A stretch of 64,000 bases of DNA from Chiloscyllium plagiosum. Its lineage: Eukaryota. This document shows, piece by piece, positions 23,743 through 52,405 of the stretch. The DNA lies in assembly GCF_004010195.1 (NCBI RefSeq), contig NC_057718.1, forward strand, positions 73,270,533 through 73,334,532, given 5' to 3'. The notes beneath the pieces are model-generated. The model did not search any database, was not told the DNA's origin, and worked only from the letters and a program-made list of their open reading frames with translations. Each line of letters begins with the position of its first letter. Position 1 is the first letter of the stretch. Both the position numbers and the translations under genes were made by a program.

Positions 23743-26425
23743 CAGGTTGTTCTGCTATAATCTGCATTTCATTAATGTGCATTTGCTATAATGCAATTAG
23801 TGAATTGGCGACACTGTTTCTAAAGCATGAACTTTTAAAACGTGTATTGGTTATAACACGATTCTGGCCCCATTAGATAAATGGTGCTGCTATTAAACAA
23901 TTTTCTTATAGTAAGGGATTGCACGAGAACATAGAACATAGAACATAGAAGAATACAGCGCAGTACAGGCCCTTCGGCCCTCGATGTTGCGCCGATCCAA
24001 GCCCACCTAACCTACACTAGCCCACTATCCTCCATACGCCTATCCAATGCCCGCTTAAATGCCCATAATGAGGGAGAGTCCACCACTGCTACTGGCAGGG
24101 CATTCCATGAACTCACGACTCGCTGAGTAAAGAACCTACCCNNNNNNNNNNNNNNNNNNNNNNNNNNNNNNNNNNNNNNNNNNNNNNNNNNNNNNNNNNN
24201 NNNNNNNNNNNNNNNNNNNNNNNNNNNNNNNNNNNNNNNNNNNNNNNNNNNNNNNNNNNNNNNNNNNNNNNNNNNNNNNNNNNNNNNNNNNNNNNNNNNN
24301 NNNNNNNNNNNNNNNNNNNNNNNNNNNNNNNNNNNNNNNNNNNNNNNNNNNNNNNNNNNNNNNNNNNNNNNNNNNNNNNNNNNNNNNNNNNNNNNNNNNN
24401 NNNNNNNNNNNNNNNNNNNNNNNNNNNNNNNNNNNNNNNNNNNNNNNNNNNNNNNNNNNNNNNNNNNNNNNNNNNNNNNNNNNNNNNNNNNNNNNNNNNN
24501 NNNNNNNNNNNNNNNNNNNNNNNNNNNNNNNNNNNNNNNNNNNNNNNNNNNNNNNNNNNNNNNNNNNNNNNNNNNNNNNNNNNNNNNNNNNNNNNNNNNN
24601 NNNNNNNNNNNNNNNNNNNNNNNNNNNNNNNNNNNNNNNNNNNNNNNNNNNNNNNNNNNNNNNNNNNNNNNNNNNNNNNNNNNNNNNNNNNNNNNNNNNN
24701 NNNNNNNNNNNNNNNACTAACGTCTCGCTGAGTGAAGAACCTACCCCTAACATCTGTCCTATATCTACCCCCCCTTAATTTAGAGCTATGCCCCCTTGTA
24801 ATACCCGGCTCCATACGCGGGAAAAGGTTCATACTGTCGGCCCTATCTAACCCCCTAATCATCTTGTACACCTCAATCAAGTCACCCCTAAACCTTCTTT
24901 TCTCTAATGAAAACAGCCCCAAGTGTCTCCGTCTTTCCTCATACGATCTTCCTTCCATAGCAGGCAACATCCTGGTAAACCTCCTCTGCATCCGTTCCAG
25001 TGCCTCCACATCCTTCCTATAGTATGGCGACCAAAACTGCACACAATATTCCAGATGCGGTCGTACCAGAGTCTTATACAACTGCATCATGACCTCAGGA
25101 CTCCGGAACTCAATTCCTCTACCAATAAAAGCCAGTACGCCATATGCCTTCCTCACCGCAGTATTTACCTGGGTGGCAACTTTCAGAGATCTGTGTACAT
25201 GGACACCAAGATCCCTCTGCTCATCCACACTACCAAGTATCCGACCATTAGCCCCGTACCCCATCTTTTTGTTATTCTTCCCAAAGTGAGTCACCTCACA
25301 CTTAGCTACATTGTATTCCATTTGCCACCTTTCTGCCCAGCTCTGCAGCTTCTCTATATCCTGCTGTAACCTGCCACATCCTTCCTCACTGTCTACCACT
25401 CCTCTGACTTTCGTATCATCCGCAAACTTGCTTACCCAACCTTCTAACCCCTCTTCCAGGTCATTTATAAAAATGACAAACAGCAATGGTCCCAAAACAG
25501 ATCCTTGCGGAACACCGCTAGTGACGGCACTCCATGAAGAAACTTTGCCATCAACTACTACCCTCTGTCTTCTTCCAGGCAGCCAACTCCTAATCCAAAC
25601 CTCCAACTCATCCTCAATGCCATACCTCCGTATTTTTTGCAGTGGTCTACCATGGGGAACCTTATCAAACGCCTTACTAAAATCCATATATACCACATCT
25701 ACCGCTTTCCCCTCATCAACCTCTTTCGTCACCTTTTCAAAGAATTCAATAAGGTTTGTGAGGCATGACCTGCCCTTCACAAAACCATGCTGACTATCCT
25801 TGATCACATTATTCCTATCCAGATGTTCATAAATCCTATCCCTTACAATTCTCTCTAAGATTTTGCCCACAACAGAAGTGAGACTCACCGGCCTATAGTT
25901 ACTAGAGTTATCCCTACTCCCCTTCTTGAAGAAGGGAACCACATTTGCTAGCCTCCAGTCTTCTGGCACTACTCCTGTAGACAACGAGGAAATAAAAATC
26001 AAGGCCAATGGCTCTGCAATCTCCTCCCTTACTTCCCAGAGAATCCTAGGATAAATGCCATCAGGCCCAGGGGACTTATCTATTTTCACCCTTTCCAGAA
26101 TTTCCAACACCTCTTTTCTACATACCTCAAAGCCATCCATTCTACTTAATTGTGACTCAGTATTCACATCGATGACAATGTCCTGTTCCTGATTGAATAC
26201 TGACGAAAAGTATTCATTCAGTGTCTCCCCAATCTCTTCAGCCTCCACACGCATCTTTCCACTACTATCCTTGACTGGACCTATTCCTACCCTAGTCATT
26301 CTTTTATTCCTGACATACCTATAGAATGCCTTAGGGTTTTCCCTAATCCTACCAACTAAGGACCTTTCATGTCCCCTCCTTGCTGGAGAATGGAACTATC
26401 ATGTTATAGCAGAACTTGCCAACTG
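23743..26425. mobile_element. pogo/Tigger-like MITE split by a CR1 insertion
   Basis: TA|CAGGTTGTTCTGCTATAA ... TTATAGCAGAAC..AACTG|TA imperfect TIRs with TA flanks; about 225 bp without the CR1. Confidence 0.6.
23929..26384 (-). mobile_element. Young CR1 (HER1-like) LINE, 5'-truncated, uninterrupted RT frame
   Basis: More than 500 codons without a stop: KSPGPDGIYP, YMDFSKAFDKVPH, GVPQGSVLGP, KFADDTK, RPHLEYCVQFW; (AGAACAT)n tail. Confidence 0.95.
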
Positions 26426-33859: not shown

Positions 33860-35660
33860 ACAGCTATAGCATTGAAAAAAGCCTTTCATGCTTTGGCGTC
33901 ACAAATGTATATCTGAATATCTCTTAAATGTTATATTGGTTTCTGTTTTACTACTCTTCGAGGCAGTGAATTCCAGATTCCCATACCATGACTGAAAATG
34001 TTTTTCCTCCTCTCTCCTCAAATCCTTTTGCCCCTTTCTTAATTCTATGCCCCTGATTGATCCCTCCATCAAAGGGAAATATTTCTTCTTGTTTGCCCTG
34101 TCTATATCACACATAATTTTATACGTCTCAATTAAAGTCATAAAGTCATAGAGTCATAGAGATGTACAGCATGGAAACAGATGGTCCAACTTGTCCATGC
34201 CGATCAGATATCCCAACACAATCTAATCCTACCTGTCAGCACCCAGCCCATATCCCTCCAAACCCTTCCTATTCAAAGACCCATCCAGTTGCAATCATAC
34301 TAGCCTCCACCACTTGCTCTGGCATCTCATTCCATACATTTACCACCTCTGTGTGAAACAGTTGCCCCATAGGTCTCTTTTATATCTTTCCCCTCTTACC
34401 CTAAACCTATGTCCTCTAGTTCTGGACTTCCCCACCCCAGGGAAAAGACTTTGTCTATTTATCCTATACATAAGTCTCATGATTTTATAAACATCTAAAA
34501 GGTTACCCCTCAGCCTCCGATGCTCCAGGGAAAACAGCCCCAGCCAATTCAACCTCTCCCTATAGCTCAAATCCTCCAACATCCTTGCAAATCTTTTCTG
34601 AACTCTTTCATGTTTTACAACATCCTTCTGATAGGAAGGAGACCAGAATTGCACGCAATATTCCAACAGTGACCTAACCAATGTCCTGTACAGCCACAAC
34701 ATGACCTCCCAACTCCTGTACTCAATACTCTGACCAATAAAAAAAGCATACCAAACACCTTTGTCACTATTCTATCTACCTGCGACTCCACTTTCAAGGA
34801 GCTATGAACCTGCACTACAAGGTCTCTTTGTTCAGCAACACTCCCTAGGACCTTACCATTAAGTCTATAAGTCCTGCTAAGATTAAGGGCCCATTTGCCC
34901 ACCTGATCAAGATCTCGTTGTAATCTGAGGGAACCTTCTTCGCTCTCAATTACACCTCCAAATTTGGTGTCATAGTTTGGTACAAACCTACTAACAATAC
35001 CCCTTATGCTCATATCCAAATTGTTTATATAAATGATGAAAAGTAGTGGACCCAGCACCGGTCCTTGTGGTACTCCACTGGTCACAGGCTTCCAGTCTGA
35101 AAAACAACCCTTCACCACCACCCTCTGTCTTCTACCTTTGAGCCAGTTCTGTATCCAAAAGGCTAGTTCTCCCTGTATTCCGTGAGATCTAACCTTGCTA
35201 ATCAGTCTCCCATGGGGAACCTTGTCAAATACCTTACTGAAGTCAATATTGATCACGTCCACCCTCAAACTTTTCTGCTCTAAGGAAAAGAATCCCAGTC
35301 TGTTCAATCTCTTTTCATAATTAAACTCTCTAGCCAAGCCTATGTCCTGCTAAATCTCCTCTGCACCATGGTCTTAAAGTATTTTCTATTACAGGCAAAT
35401 ATAATAATATTCCCCTCTGAACCATTTTATCAACCTGTCCTGATACCTTAAGGGACTGGTGGACATGCACACCAGTGTCCCTCTGATTATTAATGCTTCT
35501 CAGGGTCCTAGTACTCATCATGCATTCCCTGCCTTGTTTGTCCTGCCCAGGTGCACTTATCCAGACTGAATTTCATTTGCCACCGATGAACCCATCTGTC
35601 CAGCTTGTCCATACCCTCCTGTAATCTAAGGCTATCCTCTTCATTATTTACAACCCCAGC
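33860..35660 (-). mobile_element. Nested CR1 3' fragments downstream of HTR1E
   Basis: DFSKVFDKVPH, GVPQGPVLGP and LEYCVQFWSP motifs; (GAGTCATA)n tail at about 34136. Confidence 0.85.
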
Positions 35661-36552: not shown

Positions 36553-37641
36553 TTAACCATGTTTTTTGCATCTTATAAGCTTCCGGAAGGCTAACTTGAA
36601 ATCTTCATTGAAACTTGTGTACAAGAGAGGGTTAATTAAAGAATTGATATAGCCTAACCAAGTTAAAAAATCAGCAACTACTGGAGAAACGACACAAAGG
36701 TGCAGTCCCACACAGAGCTCTTTGATGAAAAAGGGCAGCCAGCAGATAATGAAAGCCCCAAGAATGAGTCCCAAAATGCGAGCTGCTTTCCGTTCCCTTG
36801 AGTTAGAGATTTGCTGGCGCTCTTCCATACTCCCCTGCCCATTTTCGAGTGTTGGGACCCTGACCATCAGGTGATCATTGTGAAACTTCAGTGCAGGTTC
36901 AGAGTTGTGTAGATCAGATACACAAAAGGTATGTGTCAGATTATAGCTCATGTAGATTTGGCTTTCACTGTTGCGACCAGTAAAGTGGCGGCTGGAACCA
37001 CGTTTCTGGTAAAGGTTCTTGGCAGCATGGTAGATACGGTAGTAAAGGATGAGAATTAAAGCTGATGGAATGTAAAAAGCTCCAAATGTTGAATAAATGG
37101 TGTAGATCACAAGGTCATGCTGAATTATGCACTTTTTCCCTGTAGAGTTAACATTGTGGCTCCTCCAAAACAGGGGTGGCATGGATATGAAAACAGAAAT
37201 AGTCCATACAGCCAGTATCATGACTCCCGCACGCTTGGCAGTCCTTTTTGGAGCATATTCTATGGCATCCGTGATGGCCCAGTATCTATCCAGAGCAATC
37301 ACACACAGATGAAGGATTGAGCATGTACAGAATGTCATGTCCAAACTCAACCATGCCTCACAAACAATGTAACCCAAAACCCAAGCATCAGTGGTAATGT
37401 ATATAATACTGATAGGCATTACTAGAATAGCAACAAGGAGGTCTGTCAGAGCTAGGGAACATATGAGATAGTTTGCAGGTTGGTGCAATTTCTTTGTAAT
37501 ACAAATAGCAACCATTACAGCAGAATTCAACAAAGTTGCTAGAATTGCAATTAAAGACAGAATTGAAGCAATAGCAGTCCTTTCAGTAAACGTTTTGGAT
37601 CGTCCTTGACATGATTCATTTGTGGAGTTTGAGAAGCTCAT
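36553..37641 (-). CDS. HTR1E: 5-hydroxytryptamine (serotonin) receptor 1E, intronless CDS, 362 aa
   Basis: Intact 7-TM class A GPCR with TM3 Asp (WLSLDMT), DRY, CWLPFF and NPLLY. Segments KKLHQPANYLICSLA, AAKNLYQKRGSSRH, TFCVSD, ERQQISNSRERKAARILGLILGAF and FNEDFKLAFRKLIRC match 5-HT1E rather than 5-HT1F. The ATG has A at -3. Confidence 0.95.
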   Translation of the reverse strand: MSFSNSTNESCQGRSKTFTERTAIASILSLIAILATLLNSAVMVAICITKKLHQPANYLICSLALTDLLVAILVMPISIIYITTDAWVLGYIVCEAWLSLDMTFCTCSILHLCVIALDRYWAITDAIEYAPKRTAKRAGVMILAVWTISVFISMPPLFWRSHNVNSTGKKCIIQHDLVIYTIYSTFGAFYIPSALILILYYRIYHAAKNLYQKRGSSRHFTGRNSESQIYMSYNLTHTFCVSDLHNSEPALKFHNDHLMVRVPTLENGQGSMEERQQISNSRERKAARILGLILGAFIICWLPFFIKELCVGLHLCVVSPVVADFLTWLGYINSLINPLLYTSFNEDFKLAFRKLIRCKKHG

Positions 37642-37809
37642 TGTTTAATGTCCAGAACACAAATGCTTACAATTTCCAAAACATGGCAGAAGATTTCCAC
37701 TGTTTCTTTTGTCAACTGAAGAGTGAGTTTAATTATTATTACTTCAACGTCAAAGTCCTGAGTGTTCTTCACAATCTTGTTTTTGTGTAACATCGACAAA
37801 ATAATTTTC

Positions 37810-39085: not shown

Positions 39086-39490
39086 GAACATAGAACAATA
39101 AAGCACAGAACAGGCCACGATGTTGTGCCGAACATTTGTCCTAGCTTAAGCACCCATCCATGTACCTATCCAATTGCCGCTTAAAGGTCGCCAATGATTC
39201 TGACTCTGCCACTCCCACAGGCAGCGCATTCCATGCCCCCACCACTCTCTGGGTAAAGAACCTACCCCTGATATCCCCCCTATACCTTCCACCCTTCACC
39301 TTAAATTTATGTCCCCTTGTAACACACTGTTGTACCCGGGGAAAAAGTTTCTGACTGTCTACTCTATCTATTCCTCTGATCATCTTATAAACCTCTAACA
39401 AGTCACCCCTCATCTTTCGCCGTTCCAATGAGAAAAGGCCTAGCACTCTCAACCTATCCTCGTATGACCTATTCTCCATTCCAGGCAACA
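39086..39490 (-). mobile_element. CR1 3' end
   Basis: RGDLLEVYKMIRG...FFTQRVVGAWNALP. Confidence 0.9.
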
Positions 39491-39682
39491 GAATAGTAAT
39501 ACATGTTACTAGAATAGTAATTCAGGAGCAAAATGAGGCTCTATTCACCTGCAGGAACCTGGACAACATTCAGGTTTGGACTGTTGAGTAGCAAGCAACA
39601 TTTATGCCACAAAAGTGCTAAGTAATGACGATTATCAGCATTAGAGAATCTATAACCTTTTCTTGATATTCAATGTCATGAC

Positions 39683-39782
39683 TGTAGTAATCAGAATGAG
39701 ATCAACCAGATGGACATCAGCGAATGTGTTCCCTGATTGGGGCTGTTAACCTGGTCCAATCAGAGACACCTTTTGAGAGAAA
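39683..39782 (+). mobile_element. Probable 5' part of an LTR (Gypsy-type), cut off by the Tx1 array
   Basis: Starts abruptly with TGTAGT inside an old LINE RT remnant. Carries opposed CCAAT boxes CTGATTGG...CCAATCAG. Confidence 0.5.
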
Positions 39783-41076
39783 TGCTTGGAATTTGAATAA
39801 AGATTCGTGCACTTTGCATCTTTCACTGTGTCTCACACCTGCACACACACACCATGGGTGCTGGGGAGAAAATATGCACTACCGCACTTAGGTGGTAGTG
39901 TGGGGTTAAAGGGGAAAAAAAAGGGGAGTGTCACTAAAAAAGAAAAAAGAAAAAAAAATAAAAAAAATAAAAAAAATAAACAGGAGATTAAAGAAAAAAA
40001 AAACAGGAGTGTTCACTGGCCACCCGGGTGTTTTCCTATCTTCCTGGTGGTGGAATTTGAATAAAGATTCGTGCACTTTGTGTCTTTCACTGTGTCTCAC
40101 ACCTGCAAAAAAAAAGAAAAGAAAAGAAAAAAAAAATGAACAGGAGTGCTTGGAATTTGAATAAAGATTCGTGCACTTTGCATCTTTCACTGTGTCTCAC
40201 ACCTGCACACACACACCATGGGCGCTGGGGAAAAATAAGCACTACCGCACTTAGGTGGTAGTGTGGGGGTTAAAGAAAAAAAAAATGAACAGGAGTGCTT
40301 GGAATTTGAATAAAGATTCGTGCACTTTGTGTCTTTCACTGTGTCTCACACCTGCAAAAAAAAAGAAAAGAAAAGAAAAAAAAAATGAACAGGAGTGCTT
40401 GGAATTTGAATAAAGATTCGTGCACTTTGTGTCTTTCACTGTGTCTCACACCTGCACACACACACCATGGGTGCTGGGGAAGAAAAATAAGCACTACCGC
40501 ACTTAGGTGGAAAAAAAAAGAGAAATGTTTGGCCACCCGGGTGTTTTCCTATCTTTCTGGTGGTGAAATTGAATAAAGATTCGTGCACTTTGTGTCTTTC
40601 ACAGTGTCTCACACCTGCAAAAAAAAAGAAAAGAAAAGAAAACAAAATGAACAGGAGTGCTTGGAATTTGAATAAAGATTCGTGCACTTTGTGTCTTTCA
40701 CTGTGTCTCACACCTGCACACACACACACCATGGGTGCTGGGGAAAAAAAAAATAAAAGAGGACATCAAATAAGCGCTACCGCAGTTAGGCGGTAGTATG
40801 GGGGTTAAAAAAAAAACTGGAGCGTCAATTCTATTTTGATAAAAAAAACCCAGAAAATTTACATTAGAGCCCGGGTGTCCTTGGAGAAGGAGCACACGGT
40901 GTCCACCAACACCCTGGAGTTGTTCAGGGAGAGGTGGGCGCCGCAGGGAGTGGAGTGCATTATTTCTCCCTCCAACTCTAAATAAAAAAAAATGAACAGG
41001 AGTGCTATCACACAGCATTGCCCTTTGATGTGAAGGGCACTGCTTGTCACTGGCCACTCGGGTGTTGGCCTATCTT
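39783..41076 (+). repeat. Head-to-tail array of short Tx1 3'-end copies with A tails and TGAACAGGAGTGCT linkers
   Basis: About 10 units share segments of the Tx1 3'UTR/ORF2 end. Exact linkers at 40137, 40286, 40386, 40648 and 40993. Confidence 0.9.
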
Positions 41077-42128
41077 AAGAGTTGGAGCAGTGTGAGTGAG
41101 TGTGCACACGGGCAAGGACTCTCCTCCTTGAAGGGGACTGTCCCTGGATTAGCTGCCCTGCATCGAGAGAGAGAGAGAGAGGAAGGAAAGAAGAAGAAGA
41201 GGAGGAGGCAGAAGCAGAAGGAGGTGAGAGATTTTGAGTCTGGGGCCTATGTTTGGACCTGCAGCCTGGGCCTCACCCAGGTCAAGGGAGTGTTGCTGCT
41301 GACCTGGGGCCCACTCCCACTGCTGGTTTTTGGGACCCCGCCTGGACCTGCCTCAGCTGTTGCTGCTTGGGGCCTGCCTCACTGCTGCTGCCTGAGACTT
41401 GCCTTGGGGACCCTCCCAGGACCTCCACCACTGCTGCTGTTATTAGAGGCCCACCTCCACTGCTGCTGCCTGGGACTCAATTTTGGGGCTGACTGGGACT
41501 TGCCTTGGGGACCCTCCCCAACAGGTCTGCCCCACCAACTGCTGCAACCAAGGGCCTGCCGAGGACTTGCCAGAGGCCTGCCTCCACTGCTGCTGTTGTC
41601 TGAGGCCTGCCTCCAACAATGCTGCCTGGGACTCGCCTTGGGGCCCCTCCCAACAACCTCAACCACTACTGCTGCCTGGGACTTGCCTTGGGGACCCTCC
41701 CCAACAGGTCTGCCCCCACCGCTGCGACCGAGGGTCTGCTTAGGACTTGCCTGAGGCCTGCGTCCACCGCCACTGCCTGGGACTCGCCTTGTCCCCTCCC
41801 CAGGACCTCCAACACTGCCACTGCTGGAGGCCCACCTCCACTGCTACTGCTGCCTGGGACTCAATTTTGAGGCTGCCTGGGACTTGCCTTGGGGACCCTC
41901 CCCAACAGGTCTGCCCCCACCGCTGCGACCAAGGGCCTACCTGGGACTCGCCCGAGGCCTGCCTCCACCGCTGCTGTTGCCTGAGGCCTGCCTCCACCAC
42001 TACTGCTGCCTGAGACTCGCCTTGGGTGACTGGCCTTGGGCCCCTCCCCACAACCTCCACCACTGCTGCTGCCAGAGGCCCACCTCCACCGCTGCTGCCT
42101 GAGGTCTACAAATATCCAGCAGCAGAGT

Positions 42129-44353
42129 ATGGCGAGCCCGAAGGTCACGGGGCCTAGCCGCACCTACGCCGGGGTAGCCGCTGCTTTAGGCTCGGCTATC
42201 CCAACCCTGGCCGCAACCGCAACCCCCTTCAGGCACCTGACTAAATGCCTGGGGGTAAAGGCCTATCCCCACCCCAACATGTCCATCGAGGCCTGCAGCA
42301 AGGCCATGGCTAGTGTGGTCGGCCCACTGGCCATCGTCGCTGCGGCCCGGATGTACGGGAAGGCCGTCTTCTTCCTTAAGACCGAGCAGGCGGTCCACCT
42401 GGCCGTGGAGAGGGGGCTCACTGTGGGCGGGACACATTTGCCCGTCGACCCTCTGGAGGTTACGGCCCAGAGGGTCGTGATCTCCAACGTCCCACCCTTC
42501 ATTGCCAGCGAGCTCCTTCTACCCCACCTCACCACCTTTGGGGAGATCCGGTCAGGGGTCCAACCGCTCCTGCTCGGTCTTAAGGACCCCGCCCTCCGAC
42601 ACATCTACTCCTTCCGATGCCAGGTGTTCATTTGCCTGGCCCGGGAGGAGGTCACCGAGGGCTCATTCACACTCCTCCATGAGGGCGTGGCCTACCACGC
42701 CTTGCAGACAGCATGCGGTGCCACCTGTGCCCCGAGGTGGGGCACATTAGAAAAAACTGCCCCACCCAGAAGGCTGCCCAGCCCACGCCAACAGCTGATG
42801 GTGGTGCCGCCGCACCCACTCCCCCTCCCCCGAAGTCAACACCACAAGCCCCGGCACCGGAGAGTAAGCCGGATGCATCCGATGCTCCAGCCTCAGGCAG
42901 GGAGGGGGTGATCGTCCGGCCGGCCAGAAGGCGCTCAAGAAGACGTGACATGTCAGGCCTGCCCATGGGGAGACCACCCTATCCCCTTCCCCGACACCCA
43001 GCCCACGCCCTGCCCCACCTTGGCACGATAATGCCCCTGCGGCCGTGCCAGCATTGCCCCGGCGCGGGAACCCTGACCCCCAAACCCCCACCTGATCCTG
43101 GTCTCACTGACCCCACATCCACTCCCCACTCCGATAGAGAAACCCCTGGGGCTTCAACACCTGCCCCTGGCGCTGTAACACCTGGTCTGGGGGCCCCCGA
43201 GCCCGAGCCCTGGCACTAACCTGGGGGGAAACCACCACTACCCCACCTCCTGCAGCGACCGTGCCTCTGGGCCCTGGAGAGGGAATTGGGCCTCTTTCCC
43301 GCCCGCCGTCACCTGATAAACCAGGGGCGGGGCAAGAAGTGACACAGCTGACCCTCCCCACGCCTTCTGTCTTCCCCCAGCCAATCGTATTCCGGGAAAA
43401 GCTGGGGGGGGACCTCGGGCCCCATGACCACCAAGGCGGGCGGGGAGGGGAAGGCCCATAAATTCCCCCCTGTCTCTCTGGGGAAGAGGCACCGGCCCGT
43501 GGAGGGGAGAGACACTCCAGCAGCGCTGCCCCTCTCCAGGGGATGAGCCAACGGTGCCTCTTGACTGTCCTGCACTGCGGCCCGACCTACCCAAACCCAC
43601 AGTGGCTACAGCAGGGCCTCCTGCTGCCTCAACTCCTCCGGCCCCTTTGGAGGACTTTAACAACCACGAGGGTCGTGGTGCGGGTGACGATGGAGGACCC
43701 TCTGCTGGGTCGTCGAGCGGCGGAGGGGAGGAAGGTGTTATCCTCGCTCCTCCCTCCCAGACTGTTTTTCCGGGGGCCTTGGCCCTGGGGGAGAACCTTT
43801 TCCCCGAGGAGCCGGGCGTCTCGTTGTTGGGAGAGGAGCGGGGCCCCGGGCCTCTGCCGCCCGATGACCCGAACTCGGGGCGTTCCGGGAAGGGGTGCGC
43901 TGTGGAAGGTACTGCCGGTGACCCTGGCGGTGGGGTCGCCGGGGGTTTGAGGCCAGTTGGCTGTGCCGGACCAGCCCCCATCCTCTCGGTGGGGGAGGGG
44001 TCGGTGACAGAGGGCGACCTCCCAGAGGAGGGTTCGGGATCGGTGGCGGACACCGGGGACGACGCGGACTCTGTCTGCAGTGACGTTTGAGTCCCAGGTG
44101 CCCCCCCCACCGATCTCCCCCTCATCCCCTCGAGGAACTCTGGGAATTTGTCGAGGAAACACGGAGTTGCCAGGATAGAGCCCAACTGGCACTCGACTGC
44201 TGGAGCTCATTCGAGAGAGTTTATAGGTTGGCCCACGCTGCTTGCCAGGCGCCTGGGCTCGACGTGAATGAGCGAAAGCGAGTCAGGAACTTCCTGGGTG
44301 CGCTCCTGGTGAGGGCAAGGGACTTCTGTGCCCCTCCCTCATCCTCCCAGTAA
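42129..44353 (+). pseudogene. Tx1 ORF1 (RRM-like region, CCHC zinc knuckle, long Pro-rich linker), frameshifted
   Basis: MASPKVTG...AAARMYGKAVFFLKTEQAV...VVISNVPPFI...CHLCPEVGHIRKNC, spread over several frames. C-terminal helical block LEELWEFVEETR...RVRNFLGALL ends at 44353. Confidence 0.8.
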
Positions 44354-44408
44354 ATGTGTATATATAGGTTTTTAACTGTACTGGTGGTGGTTGCACAACG
44401 CTTCCGAC

Positions 44409-47400
44409 ATGGAGCCAACTATAGCCAGCCTCAACATCAACGGCAGCAGGGAGTCACAGCGCAGATTCCAGACCCACTCGGTCCTTCGGGACGGGAGGTA
44501 TGCGGTGTGCTTCCTGCAAGAAACCCACACTACCCCGGAGACGAAGCCACCTGGCTCCTGGTGTGGCGAGTGGGGGTGGGGTCTACATGAGTCACCTCAC
44601 CCGCAGATCTGGCGGGGTGGCTATTTTGTTGGCCCCGCATTTTCAGCCGGAGATCTTGGGGGTCAGGGAGCCCATGCCAGGCCATTTGCTTCACCCGATG
44701 GTTCGGCTGGGGGGCGCGGTGCTTCACTTGGTGAACGTCTACGCTCCCCTGGCCGGGCCAAGGCAAGCAAGCTTCTTTGAAGCAGTGTCCACTCATTACG
44801 CCTCCATCGACGAGAACCAGTGCGTCGTCCTCGGGGGAGATTTTAACTGCGTCCTCGAGGGCAGGGACCACAGCGGTGCCTGCACTGGTTGGGCATCGGG
44901 GAGGAGATTGGGGGACTTGGTCAAGTCCTTCGACCTGGTGGACGTCTGGCGAAATCTCCATCCCGACTCCATCGCCTTCACCTTCGTGAAGCCTGGGGTC
45001 GGAGCATCTAGAATCGACCGCCTGTACGTTTCACGGGCGCACGCCTCCTGTTTTCTGAAGGCCTCCACGCGGCATGTGTCGTGCACGGACCATCACCTGG
45101 TGTGGGCGGAACCTCTTCCGTTCGGCGCCAGGCTCGGCTCCGCATACTGGCACTTTAACAACCTGCTGCTGGAGGACGAGCGGTTCCGGGACTCGTTTCG
45201 TCGCTTCTGGGCCGGCTGGAGAAGGAAGCGGGGAAGCTTCCCCTCCCTGAGGCTATGGTGGGACGTGGGCAAGGCTCACGTCCGCGTCTTCTGTCAGGAG
45301 TACGCGAGGGGGTCGACGAAGAGGCAGACATCCAGGAGCGGGGAGTTGGAGAGGGAGATGCTCGACCTGGAGTCACGCCTTGGTCAGCCCGACGTGGACC
45401 CGGCCCTGCGCGGGGCNNNNNNNNTATATAGGTTTTTAACTGTACTGGTGGTGGTTGCACAACGCTTCCGACATGGAGCCAACTATAGCCAGCCTCAACA
45501 TCAACGGCAGCAGGGAGTCACAGCGCAGATTCCAGACCCACTCGGTCCTTCGGGACGGGAGGTATGCGGTGTGCTTCCTGCAAGAAACCCACACTACCCC
45601 GGAGACGAAGCCACCTGGCTCCTGGTGTGGCGAGTGGGGGTGGGGTCTACATGAGTCACCTCACCCGCAGATCTGGCGGGGTGGCTATTTTGTTGGCCCC
45701 GCATTTTCAGCCGGAGATCTTGGGGGTCAGGGAGCCCATGCCAGGCCATTTGCTTCACCCGATGGTTCGGCTGGGGGGCGCGGTGCTTCACTTGGTGAAC
45801 GTCTACGCTCCCCTGGCCGGGCCAAGGCAAGCAAGCTTCTTTGAAGCAGTGTCCACTCATTACGCCTCCATCGACGAGAACCAGTGCGTCGTCCTCGGGG
45901 GAGATTTTAACTGCGTCCTCGAGGGCAGGGACCACAGCGGTGCCTGCACTGGTTGGGCATCGGGGAGGAGATTGGGGGACTTGGTCAAGTCCTTCGACCT
46001 GGTGGACGTCTGGCGAAATCTCCATCCCGACTCCATCGCCTTCACCTTCGTGAAGCCTGGGGTCGGAGCATCTAGAATCGACCGCCTGTACGTTTCACGG
46101 GCGCACGCCTCCTGTTTTCTGAAGGCCTCCACGCGGCATGTGTCGTGCACGGACCATCACCTGGTGTGGGCGGAACCTCTTCCGTTCGGCGCCAGGCTCG
46201 GCTCCGCATACTGGCACTTTAACAACCTGCTGCTGGAGGACGAGTGGTTCCGGGACTCGTTTCGTCGTTTCTGGGCCGGCTGGAGAAGGAAGCGGGGAAG
46301 CTTCCCCTCCCTGAGGCTATGGTGGGACGTGGGCAAGGCTCACGTCCGTGTCTACTGTCAGGAGTACGCGAGGGGGTCGACGAAGAGGCAGACATCCAGG
46401 AGCGGGGAGTTGGAGAGGGAGATGCTCGACCTGGAGTCACGCCTTGGTCAGCCCGACGTGGACCCGGCCCTGCGCGGGGCATGCGAAGAGAAGAAACCCG
46501 CGCTCCAGGACCTGCAGCTCGTCGGGACTCGGGGCGCGTACATGAGGTCGCGGATCCAGCTCCTCCAGGACCTGGACCGCGGCTCCCCCTTCTTCTACTC
46601 GCTGGAAAAAAGGCGTGGCACCCGTCAGCAGCTGGCCAACAAAGGGTCCCTCGTTTCGGATCCGGAGGGCATCAGGGCCCACGTCCGAAACTATTACACG
46701 TCTCTGTTCTCTCCGGATCCGTCCAGCGAGGATGCTCGCAGTGTTCTGTGGGAGGACCTGCCACAGCTCGGCCCGGAGGACGCCGGAAGGCTCGACGCTC
46801 CCGTCACCTTAGAGGAGCTGACCGGCGCCCTCGACCGGCTCTCGAGGGGCAAAACCCCAGGGCTGGATGGGCTGACTGTGGAGTTCATCAGGGCATTCTG
46901 GGATGTCCTGGGGAGCGATTACGCACAGGTCCTGGGGGAGTGTCTAAATGCCGGAGAGCTGCCCCTTTCTTGGTGCAGGGCGGTCATTGTCCTTCTGCCA
47001 AAGAAGGGGGACCTTCGTTCCCTAAAGAACTGGGGTCCGGTCTCCCTCCTCAGCATGGACTACAAAATCTTCGCCAGGGTGTTGTCTTCTTGCCTGGCCT
47101 CCGTGCTGGCCCACATGATTCACCCGGACCAGTCCTACACGGTCCCGGGCCGGAGGATACACGATAACGTCCACCTGGTCCGGGACCTGATCCATTTCTG
47201 TCGACGGGCTGGTCTGCCGAGCGCCTTCCTGTCTCTCGACCAGGAGAAGGCGTTCGACAGGGTCGATCACGAGTACCTGCTCGGGACTTTGCGGGCATTT
47301 GGGTTCATGAGCAGTTCGTCGCCTGGATCCGACTTTTGTACGCTGCCGCAGAGTGTCTGGTTAAAGTTAACAGGTCCCTGACGGCGCCCCTTCGCTTCGG

Positions 47401-49334
47401 GAGAGGAGTGCGTCAAGGCTGCCCCCTGTCCGGCCAGCTGTAATCCCTGTGCGTGGAGCCTTTACTGCGCCTCTTGCGGAGACGGTTGTCGGGGCTGGTT
47501 CTGTGCAGCATGGGCACGGGGGTGGTCCTCTCGGCCTGCGCCGACGACGTGCTCCTCACCTTTCGCTGACCTGGGGAGGATGCACGAGTGCCAGGCCGTG
47601 TACTCGGCAGCGTCTTCTGCCAGGATTAGCTGGGCCAAATGTTCTGGACTACTGGTCAGTCCATGGCAGGTGGACTCTCTGCCAGAGGAGTTACAGGGGT
47701 TCAGCTGGAGTACCACCCATCTCCTCTACCTGGGGGTCTACCTCAGCCCGGCTGAGGAATCCTGGCCGGCCAACTGGCAGGAGCTGGAGGCCAAAGTCTC
47801 GGCTCGCCTAGCACTGCTCCGAGTGCTATCTTACAGGAGTCGAGTGCTGGTCATAAACCAGCTGGTGGCCGCCATGCTGTGGTACCAGCTGGTCACTTTG
47901 GTCCCTCCTCCTGGCTTTGTCGCTGACATCAAGAGAACGTTGGTCGACTTCTTCTGGGACAAAAGGATGCGTTGGGTTGCTGTGCAGGTTCTGAGTCTCC
48001 CTATTGCGGAGGGCGGTCAGTCGCTGGTGTGCGTCCGCACCCAGGTCACGACGTTCCACCTTCAGACCTTTATGTCGAGCCTCCTCCTAGGTGGTGCGCC
48101 CTGGCGACATATTTTTTCCGCCAGGTGCGTAACCTCGACTACGACACGCAGCTCCTGTTCATCGACCGTGACGGTTTGGAGGTCGCCCTCAAGACGCTGC
48201 CTGTCTTTTACCAGGATCTGATCACTGTCTGGAACATGGTCGAATCGCGTCGCGCCTACCCTCCGCCTGGAGTAGTGGCTGTCGTCAGGGAGTCGTTGCT
48301 CAGGAATCCACACCTCCGTACTCGCGGGTTCGAGTGGCTGTCGAAGGGGAGGGCCGTGGCGGCGAGGGTGACCAGGGTCGGGGACGTGCTGGGTGCCGGG
48401 GGCCTGGGCTGGACGCTGCCGCAGGACATAGCGAGCAGGGCAGCGGTAGAGGTCCGGTACATGGCCACCGCCATCCGACGCCTTAAAACGGCGGTGCTCG
48501 GACCCTACGTAGTGCACCAGTTGGAGGACGCTCAGGTGTGCGGTGGGAAGACGTCCACTCTCATCCCAACCCGTATGGAATTTCACATAGGCTCCCGCGG
48601 GAAGTACGGGACCTTGGGGCCAATGTCCCACAACCTGAGCCGTCTCCGGAATTTTAATTTTGTCCCTTTTTTTTAAGGATGTAAAAAGGCGGGCCGTGTA
48701 TCGACTGCTGCTGCACACCGTCCACCTCTTTTCTCCCTCATCCACCGTCCGGACACGCCTTGGCGTGCCCATTTGCTACTGGGTGGTGGGGATCCCCAGT
48801 GGAGTGCTCTCTACGCGGGAGTCCTCCCCCTTTCTCTCGGGGATCTGGGGTGGAGGGTGCTGCACGCAGCAGTCCCCTGCAACCGCAGATTGCGGTGGTT
48901 CACGGACTCCCAGCCCAACTGCTTGTTCTGTGGCGCTGTGGAGTCCGTGGACCACGTATATATTGGGTGTGGGGCGTTTGCACTCCCTTTTTGATTTTCT
49001 GAAAAACCTTCTCCTCTGTTTTTGGCTGCACTTCAGTCCCACGCTCCTGATCTTTGGGCACCCGGTACGGAGGAAGGAGGGCAGGTCTGAAGACCTCCTC
49101 GTGGGTCTGCTCCTGGGCCTGGCCAAACTGGCCATCAACAGGTCCAGGCAGCGGGCCGTGGAGGGGGTCGTTAAGGCCGACTGCCTGCCCCTCTTCCGCG
49201 GTTACGTTAGAGCCCGGGTGTCCTTGGAGAAGGAGCACGCGGCGTCGACCAACACCCTGGAGTTGTTCAGGGAGAGGTGGGCGCCGCAGGGAGTGGAGTG
49301 CATCATTTCTCCCTCCAACTCTATTTTGATTTAG
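44409..49334 (+). pseudogene. Tx1 ORF2 (APE endonuclease + reverse transcriptase), frameshifted
   Basis: APE motifs IASLNING, FLQETH, LVNVYAP, GGDFN, SRIDRLY, TDH. RT motifs GKTPGLDGL, PVSLLSMDYKIF, LDQEKAFDRVDH, GVRQGCPLS, (C)ADD. C-terminal CLFCGAVESVDH. Confidence 0.9.
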
Positions 49335-49957
49335 TCCCTACCCTCCCCTTCACTGTTTTGATCACACAGCACTGCCCCTTGATGTGAAGGGCAGTGTTTG
49401 TCACTGGCCACCCGGGTGTTTGCCTATTGTGAGTGTATGTNNNNNNNNNNNNNNNNNNNNNNNNNNNNNNNNNNNNNNNNNNNNNNNNNNNNNNNNNNNN
49501 NNNNNNNNNNNNNNNNNNNNNNNNNNNNNNNNNNNNNNNNNNNNNNNNNNNNNNNNNNNNNNNNNNNNNNNNNNNNNNNNNNNNNNNNNNNNNNNNNNNN
49601 NNNNNNNNNNNNNNNNNNNNNNNNNNNNNNNNNNNNNNNNNNNNNNNNNNNNNNNNNNNNNNNNNNNNNNNNNNNNNNNNNNNNNNNNNNNNNNNNNNNN
49701 NNNNNNNNNNNNNNNNNNNNNNNNNNNNNNNNNNNNNNNNNNNNNNNNNNNNNNNNNNNNNNNNNNNNNNNNNNNNNNNNNNNNNNNNNNNNNNNNNNNN
49801 NNNNNNNNNNNNNNNNNNNNNNNNNNNNNNNNNNNNNNNNNNNNNNNNNNNNNNNNNNNNNNNNNNNNNNNNNNNNNNNNNNNNNNNNNNNNNNNNNNNN
49901 NNNNNNNNNNNNNNNNNNNNNNNNNNNNNNNNNNNNNNNNNNNNNNNNNNNNNNNNN

Positions 49958-50515
49958 CATGCTCCTGATCTTTGGGCACCCGGTACGGAGGAAGGAGGGC
50001 AGGTCTGAAGATCTCCTCGTGGTTCTGCTCCTGGGCCTGGCCAAACTGGCCATCAACAGGTCCAGGCAGCGGGCCGTGGAGGGGGTCGTTAGGGCCGACT
50101 GCCTGCCCCTCTTCCGCGGTTACGTTAGAGCCCGGGTGGCCTTGGGGAGGGAGCACGCGGTGTCCACCAACACCCTGGAGTTGTTCAGGGAGAGGTGGGC
50201 GCCGCAGGGAGTGGAGTGCATTGTTTCCCCCTCCAACTCTATTTTGATTTAGTCCCTACCCTCCCCTTCACTGTTTGATCGGACAGCACTGCCCTTTGAT
50301 GTGAAGGGCAGTGTTTGTCACTGGCCACCCGGGTGCTTTCCTATCTTCCTGGTGGTGGAAATTGAATAAAGATTTGTGCACTTTGTGTCTTTCACTGTGT
50401 CTCACACCTGCCCACACACACACAACATGGGTGCTGGGGGAAAAAATAAGCACTACCGCACTTAAGTGGTAGTGTGGGGGTTATATATTTTTAAAAAAAG
50501 AAGAAAAAGAAAAAA
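49958..50515 (+). mobile_element. Tx1 3' fragment (end of ORF2, full 3'UTR and A tail)
   Basis: Near-identical to 49040-49427 with several substitutions, and continues to an A-rich tail. The left edge is a gap. Confidence 0.8.
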
Positions 50516-51130
50516 TGAACAGGAGTGCTTTTTCCCCCTCCAACGCTATTTTGATTTAGTCCCTCCCCTCCCCTTCACTGTTTGATCACACAGCATTGCC
50601 TTTTGATGTGAAGGGCACTGCTTGTCACTGGCCACTCGGGTGTTTTCCTATCTTCCTGGTGGTGGAAATTGAATAAAGATTTGTGCACTTTGTGTCTTTC
50701 ACTGTGTCTCACACCTGCCCACACACACACAACATGGGTGCTGGGGGAAAAAATAAGCACTACCGCACTTAAGTGGTAGTGTGGGGGTTATATATTTTTA
50801 AAAAAAGAAGAAAAAGAAAAAATGAACAGGAGTGCTTTTTCCCCCTCCAACGCTATTTTGATTTAGTCCCTCCCCTCCCCTTCACTGTTTGATCACACAG
50901 CATTGCCTTTTGATGTGAAGGGCACTGCTTGTCACTGGCCACTCGGGTGTTTTCCTATCTTCCTGGTGGTGGAAATTGATTAAAGATTTGTACACTTTGT
51001 GTCTCACACCTGCACACACGCACCATGGGTGCTGGGGAAAAATGAGCACTACCGCAGTTAGGGGGTTAATTAAAAAAAAACAGATGATAAGGGCACTGGT
51101 TGTCACTGGCCACTCAGGTGTTTTCCTTTT
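50225..51130 (+). repeat. Tandem 307-bp repeat of the Tx1 3'UTR + A tail + linker (about 2.8 units)
   Basis: Linkers at 50516 and 50823 (period 307). The third unit is diverged and runs into the 5' end of the second Tx1 copy. Confidence 0.9.
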
Positions 51131-52405
51131 GAGAGCTGGATCAGTGTAAGTGTGAGTGTGAGTGCGCACGTGCAAGGACTCTCCTCCTTGAAGGGGACTG
51201 TCCCTGGACCAGCTGCCCCACATCCAGAGAGCTGAAGGAAGGAAGAGGAGGAAGATGAAGAAGGAGGTGAGAGCTTTGAGTCTGGGGCCTACTTTTGGAG
51301 CTGCAGCCTGGGCCTCACCCAGGTCAAGGGAGTGTTGCTGCTGACCTGGGGCCCACTCCCACTGCTGCTGCCTGGGACTTGCCTTGGGGCCCCTCCCAGA
51401 ACCTCCATCACTGCCGCTGCTGTTAGAGGCCCACCTCCACCGCTGCTGCCTGGGACTTGCCATGGGGACCCTCCCCAACAGGTCTGCCCCCACTGCTGCG
51501 ACCAAGGGCCTGCCTCCAACGCTGAGGCCTGCCTTCACCATCGCTGCCTGGGACTCAATTTTGGGGCTGTCTGGACCCTCCCCAACAAGTCTGCCCCCAC
51601 CGCTGCGACCAAGGGCCTACCTGGGACTTGCCCAAGGCCTGCCTCCAGCGCTGCTGTTGCCTGAGGCCTGCCTCCACCACTACTGCTGCCTGAGACTCGC
51701 CTTGGGTGACTGGCCTTGGGCCCCTCCCCACAACCTCCACCACTGCTGCTGCCAGAGGCCCACCTCCACCGCTGCTGCCTGAGGCCTATCAACATCCAGC
51801 AGCAGAGTATGGCGAGCCCGAAGGTCGCGGGGCCCAGCCGCACCTACGCCGAGGTAGCCGCTGCCTTAGGCTCGGCTGCTCCGGCCGGCCAGAAAGGCGC
51901 TCAGGAAGACGCAACATGTCCTGCAGTAAGGCCATGGCTAGTGTGTGGTCGGCCCACTGTCCATCGTCGCTGTGGCCCGGATGTATGGGAAGGCCGCCTT
52001 TTTCCTTAAGACCGAGCAGGCGGTCTACCTGGCCGTGGAGAGGGGGCTCACTGTGGGCGGGACACATTTACCCGTCGACCCTCTGGAGGTTACGGCCCAG
52101 AGGGTCGTGATCTCCAACGTCCCGCCCTTCATTGCCAGTGAGCTCCTTCTCCCCCATCTCACCACCTTGGGGCAGATCCGGTCGGGTATCCAACCACTCC
52201 TGCTCAGTCTTAAGGACCCCGCCCTCCGACACGTGTACTCCTTCCGACGTCAGGTGTTCATTTGCCTGGCCCGGGAGGAGGTCACCGAGGGCTCTTTCAC
52301 ACTCCTCCACGAGGGCGCGGCCTACCGTGTCTCCTTGTTTACGGACGGCGTGCGGTGCCACCTGTGCCGAGAGGTGGGGCACATTAGAAAAAACTGTCCC
52401 ACCCC
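51131..52405 (+). mobile_element. Second Tx1 copy: 5'UTR and ORF1 N-terminal part, 3'-truncated
   Basis: Aligns by eye with 41077-42765; MASPKVAGPSRTYA...CHLCREVGHIRKNCPT, then an abrupt end. Confidence 0.85.

Follow-up and report, generated by a model that had tools for sequence, protein, structure and literature searches.

In the shark DNA analysed here (a stretch of 64 kb, referred to as the window), the array at 39,787-41,076 consists of 3' pieces of a Tx1-clade LINE separated by target-site duplications (TSDs). This array was probably built by repeated target-primed reverse transcription in which each new cDNA would anneal to a copy already resident at the site, so that the 5' junction of the resident would be inherited by the newcomer. 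The features of the locus are collected in Table 1; positions on the element are given as x, counted along its 3' end at 49960-50488 (window position = 49959 + x), and the 3'-region sequence fused to the front of a 5'UTR is called the leader.

Table 1. Features of the array locus in the window (T1, a 30-nt A-rich tail).
Feature	Position	Strand	Remark
Left half of the Gypsy-type target LTR	39687..39766	+	77% match to a natural empty copy (L043)
Left target end, GAGAAATGCT	39777..39786	+	Usual LTR site is about 10 nt longer
Piece 1: 3'UTR, beginning at the shared start and reaching the terminal hairpin, then tails and two near-empty linker pieces	39787..40003	+	
Piece 2: canonical-type linker, end at ACCTGC, tail T1	40004..40136	+	
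Pieces 3-5: each with linker TGAACAGGAGTGCT and start TGGAATTTG	40137..40519	+	Three different 3' ends
Pieces 6-7: linker of the second type and a further tail T1, followed by linker and shared start	40520..40758	+	
Pieces 8-10: short tags with other linkers	40759..40992	+	Include a 15-nt micro-tag and an ORF2-end fragment
Linker and untailed 70-nt leader fused to the 5'UTR	40993..41076	+	Leader is a copy of 3'UTR 50281-50347
Long Tx1-clade copy: 5'UTR, ORF1 region, ORF2 (APE endonuclease and RT)	41077..49427	+	ORF2 frameshifted
Complete 3' end and two tags behind the same linker	49960..51080	+	307-nt tandem, 97%
Second copy: leader of about 45 nt, 5'UTR, ORF1 with putative zinc knuckle	51081..52404	+	3'-truncated

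Judged by pairwise ORF2 similarity, the element is a Tx1-clade LINE rather than an L1. Its ORF2 contains the domains PF03372 (APE endonuclease) and PF00078 (RT) and is 50% identical to Xenopus Tx1 ORF2 over 568 aa (E 5.8e-170), while human L1 ORF2 was matched with an E-value of 1e-46, obtained from a different database. In ORF1, a zf-CCHC match was seen in the second copy only, at an E-value of 8e-4 that lies below the curated cut-off. The long copy lies inside the Gypsy LTR, downstream of the array pieces, and its 3'UTR breaks off where the leader ends, carrying a leader-type allele; 13 nt of 5'UTR-like sequence and a gap follow, as though this end acted as the leader of another copy that has been lost in the gap. 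A 1,056-nt duplication (44361-46480, 99.6%) around an 8-N gap in the long copy is probably an assembly artefact. The array locus, at 73.3 Mb of its contig, is not telomeric, other family matches having been found beyond it at 77.7 and 81.8 Mb, and the minus strand of the window carries remnants of other RT-bearing LINEs (24113-26395 and 34615-35349).

The 3'UTR contains two strong hairpins (z -3.7 and -3.6), and in about 2 in 100 sampled from one RNA run the family 3'UTR was present mainly in one direction (sense), with poly(A) after the terminal hairpin. The composition of 150 tails was 835 A, 104 G, 67 T and 7 C; the interruptions, mostly G, may stem from mixed tailing by a TENT4-type enzyme or from slippage, both of which we take as candidates. 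A linkage of alleles at 502 and 508 was considered as a compensatory pair and dropped, since it reflects haplotype. No tRNA genes or Rfam families were found in the 64-kb window, and an E-value scan of the array gave sub-threshold chance matches only and no ribozyme; an snRNA or tRNA target and a known self-cleaving leader were therefore rejected.

Splitting 39690-41150 at A-runs gave 11 pieces of the element's own ORF2 end and 3'UTR, matched by BLAST to that element's 3' end, together with two near-empty linker pieces. The original prediction had described just such an array, and the 5' starts and 3' ends that it listed are present; the array start, which it had put at 39783, is corrected to 39787. 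The variability it ascribed to the 5' starts is smaller than claimed: several differ (x=359, 363, 484, about 274, 161 and 322), and five of the 11 pieces begin at the same base, x=397. Most pieces are indeed A-tailed, the exception being the last one (41007-41076), which forms the long copy's leader, the 5'UTR following at 41077. Exact matches to TGAACAGGAGTGCT occur in the window at the seven predicted positions (40137, 40286, 40386, 40648, 40993, 50516 and 50823), far above chance as judged from shuffled sequence, which gave 0.55 matches at up to two mismatches. The left target end GAGAAATGCT reappears as GAGAAATGTT at 40520-40529; a loose pattern for this second linker type returned 1,116 matches and was uninformative. 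The unique left flank of the array was recovered in all three DNA contig sets compared over 39450-41300; no contig or read spanning the array was found in these sets and about 2 in 100 of one RNA run, none of the RNA matches listed belonged to the array stretch itself, and the assembly is gapped. About 2 kb from the LTR and the array, and divergent to both, the minus strand at 36553-37644 contains an intact 363-aa ORF for a rhodopsin-family GPCR (7tm_1, E 1e-66).

Many copies of the element lie within a repeat roughly 270 nt long, in which CCAAT, TATA-like and AATAAA motifs are present. This repeat is a Gypsy-type LTR, since one copy, at locus L134 only, lies downstream of a pol remnant with an integrase domain (Integrase_H2C2, E 1.5e-12); a fragment resembling rve adjoins the LTR there and was negative in Pfam. 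The preferred insertion site is the TATA-like box of the LTR. A genome search with the 3'UTR gave 740 candidates, from which 40 were scored and 30 sequences taken; by a strict test 11 of 28 loci from this search adjoin the LTR and the others lie in unique DNA, so that LTR targeting, as far as these sequences tell, is a preference and not exclusivity.

The original prediction had interpreted the linker as a regenerated TSD and proposed to look genome-wide for empty linker sites and for linkers adjoining an A tail. Both exist: the canonical site occurs in 915 exact empty copies and 612 exact copies preceded by an A tail, against 0 for the reversed controls. Where single insertions occupy unique sites, duplications of 13-15 nt flank them, and arrays at other loci, off-target ones included, carry locus-specific linkers of their own. 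From the empty sites, the A-tail-plus-linker sites and the duplications at unique sites it follows that the linker is a TSD. In the window array itself only one side of the local TSD is readable, because the right half of the LTR was not found in the 64-kb window, the match to the empty copy L043 being confined to its left 82 nt. Contrary to the original prediction, the linker is not fixed across the family: in 3.56 Gb the window linker (as a 17-mer) has 10 exact copies, 7 of them in the window, and by this distribution the 14-mer is a local variant of the TSD nearly private to the locus. The three outside copies lie in tails on other contigs, together with two of the three junction types of the window, a pattern expected from 3' transduction. 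Linkers foreign to the locus are also found on several pieces inside the array and likely arrived by 3' transduction; those of pieces 8-10 were likely imported.

The junctions were compared in a dataset of 99 sites plus the window, which excluded loci overlapping the window and empty LTR loci; 95 of these had units, 415 in total, and usable junctions were available for 352 units in 90 loci. As the loci were picked by similarity and linker patterns and not at random, the rates are not genome-wide rates. Exactly the same 5' start was shared by 165/1003 same-locus pairs vs 288/60,773 cross-locus pairs, and 49/69 multi-unit loci contained a same-start pair, whereas 2000 permutations gave a mean of 13.8 such loci and a maximum of 24. 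In 40/69 of these loci units with the same start had differing 3' ends. The off-target loci give the clearest layouts: in L023 four units behind the locus's own unique linker all start from x=254, and three of them are followed by different LTR-type tags, while L008 and L017 each have two units behind their own unique linker and junction, again with members carrying different imported tags.

A shared start could have arisen from one insertion per junction, multiplied afterwards as DNA through unequal exchange or slippage, with gene conversion by other members of the family and tail mutation blurring the copies and misassembly perhaps adding some. We regard this as an unlikely general account. 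Unequal exchange would copy the upstream tail along with the junction, yet the upstream neighbour differs for every member in 49/64 junction families, a count in which members without an upstream A-run are scored as distinct by construction; the common part in these families is only the linker and the 5' part of the unit. Downstream, 3' end or tail is not the same in 151/156 pairs that agree in start and linker, members in L023 and L017 carry different imported tags, and amplification would not produce the leader either, so that it fits the genome-wide picture poorly. On the other hand, it requires no re-targeting of off-target sites, some upstream context is common in 15/64 junction families, which also counts against the annealing reading, and within the window it accounts for the 307-nt tandem formed by the tags at 50516 and 50823 and for the threefold T1 block. 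The TGCT/TGGAATTTG junction at x=397 has five copies, every one of them in the window by genome-wide search; tail T1 precedes three of the five units, that is three of the four internal linker/TGGAATTTG junctions, and a rare variant is common to pieces 1 and 3, both points speaking against annealing for this block. Three linker junctions of the window array thus descend from one, and the seven linkers come down to about four independent tail-linker-junction types when tails and junctions are compared. Descent from one ancestral junction, by local duplication or perhaps misassembly, which the original prediction had named as its refuting case, applies to the pieces with tail T1; its regenerated TSD is supported, but not every piece in the array is a separate insertion.

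More information comes from the sequence behind the junction. Discordance was scored at 21 non-CpG subfamily sites with one pair per junction family: within 20 nt of the junction it was 3/61, a bin that BLAST end-trimming may have lowered, and with growing distance it was 18/101, 20/118, 29/153 and 17/94, against a background of 284/8422 (3.4%) and about 40% between unrelated copies. Near-identity at the junction followed by discordance is consistent with annealing to a resident copy. Against it, discordance beyond the junction in this one-pair-per-family set is about 18%, not 40%; 15/50 informative pairs have no discordant site at all; and pairs of units from one locus that start at different bases, too, show less discordance (30%) than random pairs.

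Units of one locus being more alike than random would also be explained by a burst, in which a single integration event cycles at the same nick, copying several RNAs and re-copying linker and junction. Such a burst would account for repeated hits on unique off-target sites, which fit homing by homology just as well, and for the empty linker-plus-tail repeats of L020, where at 1650-2290 the linker and from a few to 60 bases of the LTR right flank are repeated, each time A-tailed and without LINE sequence. It has little probability in our view, as age proxies differ in 14/49 arrays (p<0.01), from young to old in C4_117891229, although old donors could mimic this, and as two internal linkers of L023 have a change absent from the outer ones.

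Taking up the annealing reading again, its steps would be as follows. An insertion duplicates 13-15 nt of target, mostly at the TATA-like box of the LTR, and so regenerates the site. The endonuclease would then nick again at the linker left of the resident piece, and the new cDNA, being homologous to this piece, would pair with the top strand of the resident, so that the duplication would span the linker plus tens of bases of the resident and the remainder would come from the new RNA. Pieces carry the linkers and junctions of other loci, and these may have arrived on read-through, re-tailed transcripts (3' transduction). The leader, described below, may have been made by the same pairing, with either a resident tag or the 3'UTR of the RNA itself as partner, and some blocks, including the three window junctions, were later copied as wholes. 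Insertion of poly(A) only, combined with a long duplication, was rejected as the source of all truncated 3' ends. There were 14 cases of a truncated unit lying upstream of its partner and 26 of one lying downstream, the discordant sites being 12/93 and 34/201, respectively; together with the tailed 5'UTR fragments that have no local partner, this means that tailed RNA fragments are needed too.

The 5'UTR opens with about 40 nt that are homologous to the 3'UTR and have alleles of their own, and a variable piece of the 3' region stands upstream of them. All 29 anchored matches of a 5'UTR search, whose query held 7 leader bases, were preceded by 3'-region sequence ending near x=388. In a strict test, with the pattern wholly inside the 5'UTR, a leader of 34-637 nt was present in 27/30 loci, five of which 30 overlap earlier loci; the remaining 3/30 had short or deleted leader pieces by eye. 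Leader alleles follow the 3'UTR frequencies up to x=342 and diverge from x=352 on, in the last 40 nt, with G at one site, for instance, in 15/26 leaders vs 1/221 in the 3'UTR. From these alleles we infer that the 5' end of the RNA would itself include a stretch of about 40 nt with homology to the 3'UTR, the sequence upstream being added from a 3' source. The start of the 5'UTR (41077-41125 and 51129-51185) also resembles the LTR just downstream of the target (GAGCTGGATCAGTGT...CAAGGACTCTCC), which suggests that the LINE 5'UTR was captured from the target LTR.

In L120 and L113 a unit downstream of the long copy has the junction of the leader, which an origin of the leader by extended duplication of a resident tag would predict. 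Complete 3' ends and no matching downstream unit were seen in L122, L128 and L130, and gaps or truncation affect most of the remaining 15 stretches. The start of the leader was the same as that of the upstream unit in 4/22 only, and leaders were no closer than about 8% to units sharing their junction, with a background of 9.8%; both figures, like the long copies with no matching unit, count against the annealing reading. Long copies that have no matching downstream tag, as well as a cluster of leader starts at one position (5/28), would fit a copying at the RNA level, in which a transcript running through linker and unit of the locus is re-tailed variably and re-inserted locally, the leader coming from a promoter in an upstream tag, as in HeT-A or Penelope, or arising when the template is switched to the 3'UTR of the same RNA, as proposed for TART. 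Read-through and re-tailing are evident from the window junctions on other contigs, and an A-run within 200 nt ends 19/30 of the 5'UTR matches (one probably false), with another 5'UTR start downstream in only one of the 19, so that tailed fragments of the RNA 5' end must have been inserted too. As an origin of the arrays as a whole such copying is very unlikely: alleles and tags of the resident should persist, while 22/50 informative pairs have at least two discordant subfamily sites, and the off-target sites have no evident promoter. Its probability is higher for the leader than for the tags, and it is compatible with the annealing reading.

A wider reading, tentative and in our judgement rather doubtful, is that the LINE homes by homology to its own earlier insertions: any resident fragment, even off-target, would template the next 5' end, full-length copies would take their variable 5' ends in this way, and the loci would amount to an ordered, barcoded record of donors. 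For the repeat/spacer-like log of the original prediction no function as a log was found. Micro-tags taken from within ORF2, about 22 nt long and equipped with a linker and an A tail of their own, were seen at L015 (1697-1720) and in L027 after the first tail, and L004, L024, L025, L088 and L103 hold tailed non-Tx1 pieces between linkers, which could stem from trans-mobilisation of other retroposons or of cellular RNAs.

Joining of the cDNA to the second strand of the target is the least understood step of LINE integration, and hundreds of natural junctions in these arrays, with a resident copy as the apparent partner, allow the length and direction of annealing to be measured. Locus-private linkers serve as barcodes for tracing donor loci, and homology-directed 5' joining is relevant to tools for RNA-templated gene insertion derived from non-LTR elements. 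In the open-access literature, the scope of our search, no description of shared truncation points or of the shark family was found.

The published systems are compared here by the available parts of the cited texts. Members of the Tx1 clade include Xenopus Tx1L in Tx1D and the crocodilian Tx1-Mar, SINEU-3, Tx1-8_Crp and Tx1-4_AMi; Tx1 families are reported to prefer LTR retrotransposons, and tandem SINEU-3 copies to sandwich a TSD (PMC4494074). The shark element likewise targets another transposon and has an ORF2 like that of Xenopus Tx1, whereas shared 5' truncations, a leader derived from the 3'UTR and off-target arrays are not reported in the available part of PMC4494074. Tandem copies of Drosophila R1 are separated by a 14-bp TSD (PMC2718515), just as the shark units are separated by their local TSD, and pairing of the cDNA with the target's top strand sets the 5' junction in the R1/R2 model (PMC2718515, PMC13580325). 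In the portions of these accounts used, copies are added at the 5' TSD of the resident (PMC2718515, 10.1101/158386, PMC13580325); in the shark such polarity is weak, which counts against the annealing reading: the first unit was the younger in 34 vs 18 arrays, but in 21 vs 17 within junction families, where no polarity is seen. The R1/R2 cDNA is described as pairing with host rDNA or by microhomology, while in the shark it is apparently the resident element that serves as partner, and the published tandem LINE insertions, R1-type copies included, have distinct truncations in the text available (10.1101/158386), in contrast to the common truncation points of the shark units.

A full-length copy preceded by its own truncated 3' part is also the layout of the pseudo-LTRs of Penelope-like elements, as far as the accessible text of PMC8557442 describes them; these elements use a GIY-YIG endonuclease, whereas the shark element is of APE type with poly(A) tails and TSDs, and, unlike in Penelope, no Rfam ribozyme match was found in the scan of window and array. 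HeT-A and TART similarly have 3'-end sequence at the 5' end of long copies, and for TART a jump between templates, from the 5' repeat to the 3' one, has been proposed (10.1101/782904, PMC1636488, PMC5537684, each by its available part). They are described there as telomeric and without TSDs, while the shark tags are mostly internal insertions separated by TSDs, and the analogy with HeT-A tags drawn in the original prediction fits the untailed leader better than the tailed tags. By the same analogy, a promoter in an upstream 3'UTR driving the downstream copy is a candidate route for the shark leader; no start sites emerged from the RNA run sampled. A pseudo-LTR-like leader on an APE-type vertebrate LINE connects the layouts of LINEs, HeT-A/TART and Penelope. 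LTR targeting and TSD-separated stacking are thus of known kinds, and the proposed junction inheritance and the pseudo-LTR-like leader go further.
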